A DNA stretch of 32,000 bases. It comes from an uncultured Muribaculaceae bacterium. Lineage in GTDB: Bacteria > Pseudomonadota > Alphaproteobacteria > Rs-D84. How positions within the stretch are numbered: position 1 is the stretch's first letter; the number at the start of each line of letters is the position of its first letter. The DNA lies in NCBI GenBank assembly GCA_965231035.1, contig OZ246409.1, forward strand, positions 211,101 to 243,100, read 5' to 3'. Positions 7,766 through 12,658 of the stretch are shown here, in pieces. Made by a program: the position numbers and the translations under genes. A model generated the notes under the pieces. It had not been told where the DNA came from. It ran no database searches and was given only the letters and a program-made list of their open reading frames with translations.

Positions 7766-10700
7766 CTAAGCTATTTCTCGGAGTTTTATTTTTGATAAAA
7801 TATCCCTAGGAATATCCATATTTGTGTTCTTGATATATTTTTTATTCAAACCTAATATCAGTTCAGAATTTTCAATATTTTTTATATCAGTTATTTCGGA
7901 TTTTGGTTTATCAAAATTAATAGAATTTGTTTCTGATATAAATGGCTTTAACTCTATTTTTATGGGATTTTTACTCTTTTTATTAATACCTTCTTTTAAA
8001 GACGAAATCCAACCTTTACGAAGTGGTCTCAGCTTATTTAACATTACTTTACCAGCTAATGACATTTTTATGGTCTTTTCAGCCGACGGATTTTCATAAA
8101 CAGCTTCTATTGCGCTTGTTAAATCTTCCTCGGACAAGGTCAATTTTTCTTGAATAATATTCCCATCTTTGTCTTTTATTTCTTTCTGATATTCAATTAT
8201 ATCTGACAATGCCAACAGACCCTTTTGAACATCTGCAACATAATTTGTATCAACTTTAAAATATGTTTCAAGTCTATCCATATTTTTGATGGTATTTAGT
8301 ATTTGTTGATCCATTGATTTACCGGTTCTGGCTGCGCGTATCAGACCATATAAAACCTCGGCCAACAATATTTTATCTGTCTTGCTTGGCGCTTTATTCA
8401 TTTGGGCACCTGTGTCATATATATTAACATTATAATTACCATCAGAAGTTTTTTCAAAATTTTGCTGGCCCATATGACGATCAATATCCCATACATCTCC
8501 TTTGAATAGATTTGTTAATTCTATAGCAACATAAGCCAAAGCCATTTTTCTTCTTTCTTCCGCAGATGTGGAAGCCTTATCCAAGGTTTTACCCTGTGCC
8601 AATTCCATTATTTTATATCCGACTTTATCCTTTCCAACCCCATAATATTCCCAGTTTGCAACATTTGGTGTAAATTTTTCGCCGTTTATATTAACAGATA
8701 TATCGCCGTATAATTCTTTTGCCTTTTCAAACTGTTTATTACCATAAACAACATCAACCTCATATTCTGACGATGCCTTGGCTTGTTGCGCTACTTTTAA
8801 CAATGATTTATATTTCTTGTTCTTTTTTGATAATTCGCCTACGGCTTTTTCAATTATTTTAAATCCAGAGCGCGATCGTTCTAAAGCATACGGACGTAAT
8901 AAAGACAATACTTTATCTTGAATATTTCCAGTTTTTTTATCCAAATATTTTATTTTAGCAGTAACCCAAAATGACCCAGCCCCCAGTATCTCATCCACAG
9001 ATATAATATTTTTCTGCAATTCATTTGGCAGAGTATTTTTAATAGAATCAAATAGTTCCCACCTGGGTGGGATGTCTGCTTTGTCTTTAAGTTTTCCCAA
9101 ATCTTCGCGAATTTCACTTGGTAATTCTGGAACATAAGACAAAAGTTGACCAAATTTAACCCATGCAGGCCCCATGTTTTCAAAAAACATACGCAATCCT
9201 GCGCCAACACTTTTGGCGGCATTTTGATGTTCTGAATCTTTATTTTCGTCAGCGGATGCAATTGCGGATAAAATTAAACTTCGTTCGAATGGTTCAAATG
9301 CCATGATTGCTGATTCAAAAATTAATTCGGCATCTTTACGATATTTGTCATTTTTTGGGAAATGCATATTACAAACATATGCTATCTGATCTTTTGTTTT
9401 TTCATTTTCATCTGATTTACTGGATATACGATTCAATAACTTATTCATAACCAAAGAACGGAATCCTAAATCTTCTGTCCAAAAAGAATTATAAACCAAC
9501 TCTAAAAATTCTGTATTCAGATATCTATCTTGTAAATCAGTTGATACATTACCATCATTAATCTCTGTTCTGAATTTATTCATTGATTCAGGTGTTAATT
9601 TCCGATTTAAAAATTCAATAGTAGCAACAGAACGCTTATTGCTTTGTTCTAAAAATGCTAGAAATCCCTCGAATAATCTAGCCTTAAGGTCATTTGATTG
9701 GGCATCTTTATCACCAACGGTAACGACACGCTTTTCCCCAAGTATTTGCGATAATTTTTCTTGTGAAACAATTTTATCGGATAATAATCTAAATAATTTT
9801 GCTTTATCTGGTTTGCTCAAAATATCTCTTTGTTTTCCTGAGCCTGATGTAATTTTATCATACATTAAATCTTCTAATTGATAATTTTTCAAATCAGATA
9901 AAGAGTTTTTAAAATAACGTTTTCTAAAATAAAACTCGGAATCTTTGCTGATTAAATTTATAATATCATAAATATTTTCTTCGTATTGTTTTGCTCCGTT
10001 ATCTTTACCAAATTGTTCATAAACAGAATCTATGAAAATAGTCATTAGATCATTTTTTTGATTTGGAAATCTTAAATCAGAATCTTTTCTTATATTATTT
10101 TTATCTTTATCAATCCCAGCAAGTAGAATAAAAGAATATTTTTCTCTATCATTAACATTTTCCATAGAATTAATATTATTAATCAAAACGTCCAAAATTT
10201 CAGACTGATTTGATTCGTTTTTAGAAAACCACCCCAGGTTCTCCATATGTTGATAAATTTTAAATGCTTTTGTGAAGTTATTTTTTGGGAATAAATTATG
10301 TCGCTTTATGTATTTTGCTAATTCATCTTGTTCAAAGGATTCATCTGAAATATATGGCTCGTTATGGTGATAATCAAAAAAATATTCCAAATCATCAATT
10401 ATTGGTAAATCCTGTTTCAAGCATTTTACAAAATAATATCCGATTGCAGGATCCATATTATATTGTCTTAAATCATAAATTAGTTTTAATTTATTATCTG
10501 CATATTGCTTTGGGCTTTTTGCATATTCAATACCTGCTTTCTTAAATATTCTATCCAACAGCGGGGTTTCTTCATGATTTTTTAATTGTTTGTATATAGT
10601 GTACATCAACCCCATTTTTTTACCACTGAAATCATAAAAAAATCTCACGGGATCTGCGAATTCAGTATATTTATCACGAATTTTATCCAAAAATACATAT

Positions 10701-12658: not shown

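Follow-up and report, generated by a model that had tools for sequence, protein, structure and literature searches.

A predicted M48 protease joined through a helical scaffold to a divergent UbiB-type kinase fold represents a large bacterial protein family without domain models of its own

The 32,000-nucleotide stretch analyzed here (hereafter the window: contig OZ246409.1 of assembly GCA_965231035.1, positions 211,101 to 243,100) encodes a protein of 1630 amino acids (aa), which sequence comparison and structure prediction together show as a single soluble polypeptide in three parts, namely a predicted M48 metalloprotease, a helical solenoid and a UbiB/ABC1-type kinase-fold domain. These folds are known; what is new, as judged from the tools applied and a literature search, is the architecture, the loss of a Lys-Glu pair in most members, and the size of this unannotated family. 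An earlier note on this DNA, made from the letters alone, had proposed that the gene fuses the two enzyme modules and travels on a mobile island, and it mentioned neither the loss of the β3 Lys and αC Glu nor the large family that exists beyond the island. Translation bears out the 1630-aa open reading frame (ORF), and every motif quoted from it was located (numbering from the initiator Met as residue 1): HELGH at 108, QERGSD at 128, LLIDGGYDPLAY at 139, MGPAWVKFGQ at 1162, ILGAGSF at 1224, DRHMGQQN at 1393 and YDTGA at 1414. Eight public contigs encode an identical protein (P0001), and relatives align over the full length with 34-85% identity. Relative to a 71%-identical orthologue (L001 among our homologue loci), the ratio of nonsynonymous to synonymous substitution rates (dN/dS) is 0.12 overall, being 0.055 in the M48 module, 0.21 in the middle and 0.039 in the UbiB-like module; the copy in a second relative, L005, is frameshifted and was unusable for this purpose. 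Both enzyme modules are under strong purifying selection, and the full-length homologues together with dN/dS values of 0.04-0.21 identify a real gene under selection, rather than a chance ORF.

We read the N-terminus as a minimal, soluble M48 gluzincin, and hence a predicted protease. The Pfam model Peptidase_M48 (PF01435) matches aa 37-114 (E=7.1e-10; 39.5 bits against a cut-off of 20.3), as it does all 14 close relatives, and a profile built from 14 family members retrieves the Geobacter M48 peptidase structure 3c37 (E=1.3e-8) together with BepA, so that the M48 assignment of the earlier note is upheld by Pfam, profile and fold searches. In these alignments E129, within QERGSDLHSVDLLIDGGYDP, is paired with ENQADFLGVETMYKAGYNP of 3c37 and NEQEADRIGIQVLQRSGFDP of BepA, in the helix that carries the third-ligand Glu. 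The AlphaFold2 (AF2) model of aa 1-1060, with a mean predicted local distance difference test score (pLDDT) of 84.3, shows two helices, bearing HExxH and the third-ligand Glu respectively, along with a small sheet, and Foldseek returns BepA and 3c37 for the N-terminal model at a probability of 1.00 (TMt 0.56 for 3c37). Likeness to BepA (6AIT) and 3C37 extends to the three-stranded sheet ahead of the active-site helix, and to the succession of an HExxH helix and a Glu-bearing helix (E-x-x-x-D...GY(N/D)P); as in BepA, moreover, a helical TPR-like domain comes after the protease domain. The 1630-aa protein differs from both in its fused kinase-fold domain and in its shortened catalytic domain: the Pfam alignment covers profile positions 5-77 of 186 (the first 40%), H112 and E129 are separated by 17 residues versus approximately 61 in BepA, and the segment from HExxH to the Glu helix is some 45 residues shorter than in BepA or 3c37. 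A further difference concerns location. No signal peptide or transmembrane (TM) helix was found in the 1630-aa protein, in agreement with the earlier note (the best 19-residue Kyte-Doolittle window scores 1.14), and for want of a signal peptide it should not be periplasmic, unlike BepA. The minimal M48/M56 scaffolds known as 'minigluzincins' are presumably further close relatives of this module. HExxH is almost invariant in alignments of 14, 21 and 28 family members, and lies within the N-terminal 450 residues of 118 of the 134 full-length family representatives (~88%); most sampled members (23/28) give a Pfam M48 match.

The proposal of an ABC1/UbiB module in the C-terminal region also stands, although not by the most familiar route. 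With the limit relaxed to E<=10, Pfam ABC1 (PF03109) still matches neither the complete protein nor the segment aa 1130-1500, and only a few distant relatives pass it. NCBIfam TIGR01982 (UbiB) nevertheless matches aa 1132-1441 (E=3.1e-11), with 42.5 bits against an equivalog cut-off of 487.55, and the module accordingly scores under the thresholds of both collections. Comparison of the family alignment with residues 50-333 of Escherichia coli UbiB (MG1655) by hhalign gives a probability of 94.4% (E=8.6e-8) over 271 columns. Using the AF2 model of aa 1041-1630 (pLDDT 74.6), the eight best Foldseek matches in the PDB are all UbiB-family structures (COQ8A/ADCK3, MSMEG_1954 and Rv3197; among them 4PED, 5I35, 7CYR for MSMEG_1954 and 5YK0 for Rv3197), and RIO and ordinary protein kinases rank below them. 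A single-sequence PDB search with aa 1130-1500 produced noise only, and the family profile, compared with PDB sequences, found M48 entries alone and no UbiB. As TIGR01982, hhalign and AF2/Foldseek constitute three independent lines in agreement, sequence and model evidence establish the homology of the C-terminal module to the UbiB family. Both ends of the protein are therefore supported by profile matches, though Pfam alone would miss ABC1.

The conservation of individual residues within this module is more informative than its scores, and was established from the hhalign register to E. coli UbiB, cross-checked with a UbiB-ADCK3 alignment, and from an alignment of 178 family domains in which non-gap residues were counted. 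Retained hallmarks comprise K1168, G1170 and Q1171 (the KxGQ of the UbiB N-terminal extension), the small-residue nucleotide loop G1226-A-G-S1229, E1300 and D1302 of the ExD motif (E203 and N205 in UbiB), the catalytic-loop Asp D1393 (UbiB D288), H1395 (UbiB H290) and the DFG-like Asp D1415 (in UbiB, IDCG). E1300 (170/170), D1393 and H1395 (171/172 each) and D1415 (171/171) are essentially invariant across the family, and K1168 and Q1171 are each conserved in 166 of 168 domains. By contrast, the β3 Lys (UbiB K153, the Lys of VAMK in ADCK3) is replaced by S1252, its αC Glu partner (UbiB E209) by G1306, and the Mg-binding Asn of HPGN (UbiB N293) by Q1398. These losses are general: S stands at the β3-Lys position in 47 domains, A in 45, Q and K in 17 each, R in 16 and G in 11, so that S, A, Q or G prevails and approximately 19% have K or R; Glu never appears at the αC-Glu position, where G, A, D or S is found; and the Mg-binding Asn position is Q in 137 domains and N in 34. 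Judged by these residues, the core of the module clearly appears to be under selection for some chemistry, and should be unable to bind ATP in the textbook way. Given that the β3 Lys and αC Glu, the pair by which ATP is normally positioned, are lost while the other hallmarks are kept, nucleotide is probably bound and turned over non-canonically. The biochemical role of UbiB/COQ8 proteins, which are among the most widespread proteins of the kinase fold, continues to be debated; a large natural subfamily which lacks the Lys-Glu pair, keeps the other hallmarks and is fused to a protease, offers a new handle on the role of the UbiB fold.

The same evidence bears on whether this could be an ordinary quinone-biosynthesis UbiB that became fused by chance to a protease. 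Sequence and fold homology to UbiB/COQ8 would be expected of such a protein, but we consider the idea barely credible, and rejected an ordinary UbiB identity. The score lies far below the TIGR01982 cut-off, Pfam ABC1 is undetected, and the Lys-Glu pair is lost. Further, UbiB is a protein of ~550 aa with TM helices and a ubi gene context (ubiE-ubiJ-ubiB in E. coli), whereas the module forms the C-terminal part of ~1600 aa, lacks C-terminal TM helices, and has no ubi genes around it, either in the window or at the homologue loci. Canonical UbiB clusters are also far more numerous than the 1350 library proteins that match the family profile, which thus looks like that of a separate subfamily.

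Between the two modules lies a middle region which the earlier note had described as helical and devoid of recognizable motifs. This description holds: AF2 predicts some 900 residues, confidently and as helices alone, and Foldseek matches are confined to generic solenoids of the HEAT/ARM/TPR type (condensin HEAT subunits, karyopherins), with TM-scores of <=0.15. The middle is the least conserved part of the protein, by both its conservation profile and its dN/dS, but for its last ~170 residues (~960-1130), which are conserved and run into the kinase-like module.

The size of the family to which this protein belongs was visible only through exhaustive profile searching, because the word-index homologue search was too narrow, returning 14 relatives, or 18 proteins when a diverse alignment was used. 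An exhaustive search using the C-terminal alignment recovered 1350 representatives at E<=1e-3; of these, 713 remain when the limit is set to E<=1e-10, and at least 458 when it is set to E<=1e-30, each representative standing for a cluster at 50% identity. Among the 150 matches listed, most are 1400-2500 aa in length and carry the module close to the C-terminus. In the alignment of sampled members, the only nearly invariant columns are those of HExxH/E and the kinase-core residues. Since HExxH is absent from approximately 12% of full-length members that nonetheless keep the kinase-like residues, the kinase-fold module is the constant part of the family. An N-terminal hydrophobic segment occurs in seven representatives, and is absent from the window protein. 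Database names for members are 'M48 family metalloprotease' or 'AarF/UbiB family protein'; neither Pfam nor NCBIfam offers a model specific to the family, and a literature search on M48 fusions with UbiB/ABC1 and on surveys of kinase-like proteins found nothing on it. A family of at least 458 clusters, with members of 1400-2500 aa, which is unserved by either collection of models, constitutes a gap in annotation. Named carriers are metagenome-assembled genomes (MAGs) of Alphaproteobacteria and 'Rickettsiales' (two), several of them from the rumen, two contigs binned as Muribaculaceae, an unclassified 'bacterium', and a Candidatus Peribacteria genome of the Candidate Phyla Radiation (CPR), in which the architecture is the same. 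The family is shown by these data to be old, widespread and sometimes borne on mobile DNA. Both gut Alphaproteobacteria and CPR bacteria carry it, in at least one case on a mobile element, and it may therefore matter for self-maintenance or partner interaction in poorly known organisms. Two genomes encode family members in tandem (L018, 8001-18887, 1795 and 1810 aa; L019, 3364-12644, 1530 and 1547 aa), which indicates local expansion of paralogues. A distant member of 1970 aa (P0134) has no HExxH, and contains calcium-binding motifs of the EF-hand type at residues 1843-1902, after the kinase-like module.

Genomic context away from the window is characterized by housekeeping genes and by the absence of synteny, so that the homologues cannot be regarded as syntenic core genes. 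The 71% orthologue sits between dnaE and unrelated genes, and other homologues adjoin ligA, ribosomal-protein or lipopolysaccharide genes; most sampled members are without a recombinase. All-against-all comparison of flanking ORFs at 15 loci identified no conserved neighbor other than a pair comprising a recombinase and a DUF2924 protein, which is confined to close relatives, and TspO. No secretion, immunity or partner gene is conserved nearby at these 15 loci. All eight related genome-contig loci returned carry the gene, and its GC content follows that of the host, from 29% to 58%.

Taking these observations together with what is known of related proteins, we tentatively favor a reading which we nonetheless hold with less than even confidence: the 1630-aa protein may be a stand-alone, nucleotide-dependent protease that acts on membrane-associated targets in a cell-autonomous role. 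Characterized COQ8/UbiB proteins do not behave as classical protein kinases but as ATPases activated by lipids or membranes, and the M48 proteases HtpX, Oma1, Ste24 and BepA participate in membrane-protein quality control. By analogy, the UbiB-like module would not serve as a quinone-pathway UbiB; probably binding and turning over nucleotide in a non-canonical fashion, it would engage, sense or gate access to a hydrophobic or membrane-associated target, which the tethered M48 protease would then cut. In view of the lack of a conserved partner gene beside it, the protein appears to act by itself, and would represent an accessory enzyme for membrane or protein homeostasis, or for regulated proteolysis, rather than a secreted toxin. 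The lack of a signal peptide or TM helix, the lack of conserved secretion, immunity or partner genes, the housekeeping flanks, the GC content that tracks the host, and the recurrence of the architecture in Candidatus Peribacteria are all evidence for a cell-autonomous role.

Several points weigh against this interpretation. Membrane association, ATP binding and proteolysis are predictions for this particular protein, and its link to membranes is an analogy with other members of the M48 and UbiB families. With the Lys-Glu pair lost, the module could be devoid of catalysis and act only as a scaffold or ligand sensor. In the clade of the window alone (the window, L001 and L004) the gene is 7-10 GC points below its flanks, and at three loci without a recombinase (L001, L006 and L008) a tRNA gene lies within ~250 bp of the homologue, which exceeds our chance expectation and may reflect old integration events. 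Residence on a mobile element (here and in L005), adjacency to tRNA genes, and tandem copies are no less expected of an accessory gene, or of one for conflict or host interaction, than of a housekeeping gene.

If the module is indeed inactive as an enzyme, then the protein might be a sensor-protease, in which a UbiB-like pseudoenzyme binds a ligand (nucleotide, lipid or small molecule) and, via the solenoid, switches on the M48 domain to cleave a regulator, broadly in the manner of BlaR1 or ImmA/IrrE. It would be in keeping with such a switch that most members lack the β3 Lys and αC Glu, that ~88% keep the protease motif, and that a single polypeptide is encoded without a partner gene. We regard it as unlikely, however, given that D1393, H1395, D1415, E1300, K1168 and Q1171 are essentially invariant, that the lowest dN/dS in the protein (0.039) falls in the UbiB-like module, which argues for retained chemistry over mere ligand binding, and that the ~12% of members without HExxH keep the kinase-like residues. 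A different possibility, to which we likewise assign a low probability, is that these giant proteins form a new class with two enzymes each, typical of bacteria that have small genomes and depend on partners (gut Alphaproteobacteria and CPR). The UbiB fold, without the Lys-Glu pair but with an invariant KxGQ/ExD/Asp/Asp core, would have been repurposed for neither phosphorylation nor plain ATP hydrolysis but another chemistry, such as nucleotidyl or amino-acyl transfer, and would be coupled mechanistically to M48, for instance through substrate marking ahead of cleavage or protease activation. SelO and SidJ are kinase folds that have been repurposed for other chemistry.

The distribution and context of the family also invite comparison with secreted or translocated effectors. 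The earlier note had considered both an effector or toxin and a single-gene defense protein to be plausible, and neither suggestion gained direct support: relatives of the protein were not found in phage, plasmid or IMG/VR collections, PADLOC-DB 2.0 contains no model that matches any of the four island proteins, and the homologue loci share no partner, immunity or secretion gene. An effector would be exported by a system encoded elsewhere and would present two enzymatic warheads on a solenoid, aimed at a eukaryotic or bacterial host target. Such a role would suit the named carriers, a CPR bacterium and Alphaproteobacteria MAGs (including the two Rickettsiales) whose samples were taken from the rumen and elsewhere; the very large size of the protein, with a fast-evolving middle resembling a eukaryote-type solenoid; the lack of synteny, with a mobile element here, tRNA neighbors elsewhere, and tandem paralogues in two genomes; the depressed GC content of the gene in this clade; and the EF-hands of P0134. 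We nonetheless think an effector role somewhat improbable, because the protein lacks a signal peptide, none of the 15 loci has a gene of a secretion system nearby, GC content is equilibrated with the host in most lineages, and effector families seldom show such uniformity of length and architecture. The same architecture is encoded in a CPR genome, and to our knowledge CPR lineages are generally without dedicated effector-translocation systems. On balance, our preference for a cell-autonomous, nucleotide-dependent protease is retained. The features to which these arguments refer, and those of the element described below, are collected in Table 1.

Table 1. Positions of the gene, of its protein modules and of the associated integrative element in the window (homologue loci where named)
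Feature	Position	Strand	Basis or remark
M48 / alpha-solenoid / UbiB-like protein, complete gene, 1630 aa	7766..12658	minus	ATG start; stop codon 7766-7768; ORF list and translation
Minimal M48 gluzincin domain (predicted), aa ~30-200	12059..12571	minus	Pfam, profile and Foldseek matches
Predicted zinc site H108-E109-x-x-H112	12323-12337	minus	HELGH motif
Predicted third zinc ligand E129	12272-12274	minus	Aligned to M48 Glu helix
All-alpha solenoid-like scaffold (predicted), aa ~201-1130	9269..12058	minus	AF2 model, helices only, mean pLDDT 84.3 (aa 1-1060)
Divergent UbiB/ABC1-type kinase-fold module (predicted), aa ~1131-1530	8069..9268	minus	TIGR01982, hhalign, AF2 and Foldseek
KxGQ (K1168, G1170, Q1171)	9146-9157	minus	hhalign register to UbiB IKFGQ
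C-terminal tail, aa 1531-1630	7769..8068	minus	Low-confidence model (pLDDT <50 in segments); conserved motif; semi-conserved extreme C-terminus
Extended -10-like TGGTATAAT	12698-12690	minus	~30 nt upstream of ATG; consensus match only, read directly from sequence
Left direct repeat, ~190 nt	7330..7520		Ends TGGTCGG, the last 7 nt of tRNA-Pro
Non-coding left end of element with ACAGGGAATTT repeats	7521..7765		Same place in L004 (100%), L005 (77%), L020 (80%)
DUF2924 protein, 111 aa, companion of recombinase	12727..13062	minus	PF11149 E=2e-18; phrog_11806
Large serine recombinase/integrase, 550 aa	13155..14807	plus	Pfam Resolvase E=5e-39, Recombinase E=3e-14; phrog_95 integrase E=2e-93
125-aa protein, hydrophobic N-terminal segment, last gene of element	14813..15190	minus	No family match
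Right direct repeat, ~190 nt	15241..15431		Overlaps 3' end of tRNA-Pro; ends TGGTCGG
tRNA-Pro(TGG), integration target	15425..15501	minus	ARAGORN; Rfam
tRNA (Met, Gly or Lys) beside homologue	L001 9788-9864; L006 14704-14777; L008 9734-9810

An integrative element of 7.9 kb, located at the 3' end of tRNA-Pro, carries the gene as its main cargo in this lineage. The element forms a 7911-bp unit (7521-15431) bounded by direct repeats, which are 83% identical to each other by pairwise alignment. The earlier description of the gene as the only sizeable cargo of a recombinase-bearing island is accurate for this genome, but does not extend to most sampled homologues, which lie among housekeeping genes without a recombinase. 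The recombinase is CcrB/XisF-like according to NCBIfam, and the element resembles serine-integrase elements of that kind at tRNA genes in the Resolvase and Recombinase domains and the phrog_95 match, in its insertion at a tRNA 3' end with flanking direct repeats, and in cargo that varies between relatives. It differs from them in that its repeats are ~190 nt long, only 83% identical and situated outside the tRNA, which is unlike the product of integrase crossover alone, and in the presence of a second recombinase relic. This relic is a 96-nt stretch (5925-6020) near tRNA-Arg, 73% identical to the 3' end of the recombinase gene (14717-14812), which occupies the same position relative to the left repeat, with SpoU and His-phosphatase genes in between. 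It suggests an older, decayed element, and tandem accretion at tRNA-Pro.

An integrative island at a tRNA gene, whose cargo varies between relatives, is also a setting in which single-gene anti-phage defense or abortive infection may be considered, with the solenoid or kinase-like part sensing infection and the protease killing or arresting the cell. The layout of an effector domain, helical repeats and a nucleotide-binding domain loosely recalls large single-gene defense proteins. A defensive function nevertheless seems improbable: the island proteins have no PADLOC match, the homologues lie among housekeeping genes rather than in defense islands, GC content matches the host in most lineages, purifying selection is strong, and the presence of the gene at all eight of the related genome-contig loci returned is steadier than is usual for defense genes.

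Comparison with relatives provides some insight into the history of the element. In L005 the element recurs together with the gene, with proteins that are ~81-83% identical, and DUF2924 adjoins the recombinase there too. The L005 gene copy (3175-7931, 81% identical) is split into two frames between codons ~508 and 528, through either pseudogene decay or faulty assembly; its stop codon is separated from the conserved left-end sequence by an additional ~3.4 kb. On L020, a metagenome contig, the tRNA-Pro is the same and so is the SpoU gene (92% nucleotide identity), but the big gene is absent and the interval between them holds ~3 kb of other cargo (748-3500), including a truncated recombinase of 109 aa and several small ORFs. 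An empty integration site was not found, L020 being a differently occupied one. The 125-aa protein has a homologue in L011, with 44% identity.

The non-coding ends of the element also contain conserved sequence. Copies of ACAGGGAATTT occur in the left end at 7564-7585 and ~7693-7713, and in L004 (3925-4169) the 245-nt left end is 100% identical while the adjacent gene is only 87% identical, which points to mosaicism or recent recombination, or alternatively to strongly constrained protein-binding sites. Several hairpins are conserved in the ~190-nt repeats; one of these, AAATACCGCC-N4-GGCGGTATTT, resembles a bidirectional terminator and has three occurrences (one of them at 5367-5395). The repeats may represent a small RNA or a conserved end of the element; Rfam searches of the repeats and of the left end of the element yielded sub-threshold noise only. 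Upstream of the gene, the extended -10 that the earlier note had offered as its own promoter is present as a consensus match, but was not listed at 12690..12698 by a two-hexamer promoter scan.

At the other end of the gene, the tail at aa ~1590-1630 (7769-7900 in the window) is poorly modeled, and yet contains a conserved ILG(I/L)NKKYIK motif. The extreme C-terminus in the family is often (R/Q)-(I/V/A)-A or similar, including in the CPR member. As a recognition tag, this end of the protein could direct export, degradation or attachment to membranes.

Among neighboring genes, three TspO/MBR paralogues (3006-3476, 4355-4870 and 4898-5368) lie 2.4-4.8 kb from the gene. TspO is encoded 1.3 kb from a very distant homologue (26% identity) in L003 (16164-16562), and is also present in L004 (5912-6376). 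It is the only neighbor family common to distant loci, which may be coincidence. A second giant ORF in the window (22754-27745, minus strand, 1663 aa) has no Pfam, NCBIfam or PDB match; it was considered as a paralogue of the 1630-aa protein, and no relationship was found. Beside tRNA-Pro, an ORF of 358 aa (15535-16611, plus strand) has no family match, and combines a hydrophobic N-terminus with a repetitive middle rich in Ser, Thr, Ala and Arg, and a Cys-rich C-terminal part; its product may be a secreted or surface protein.

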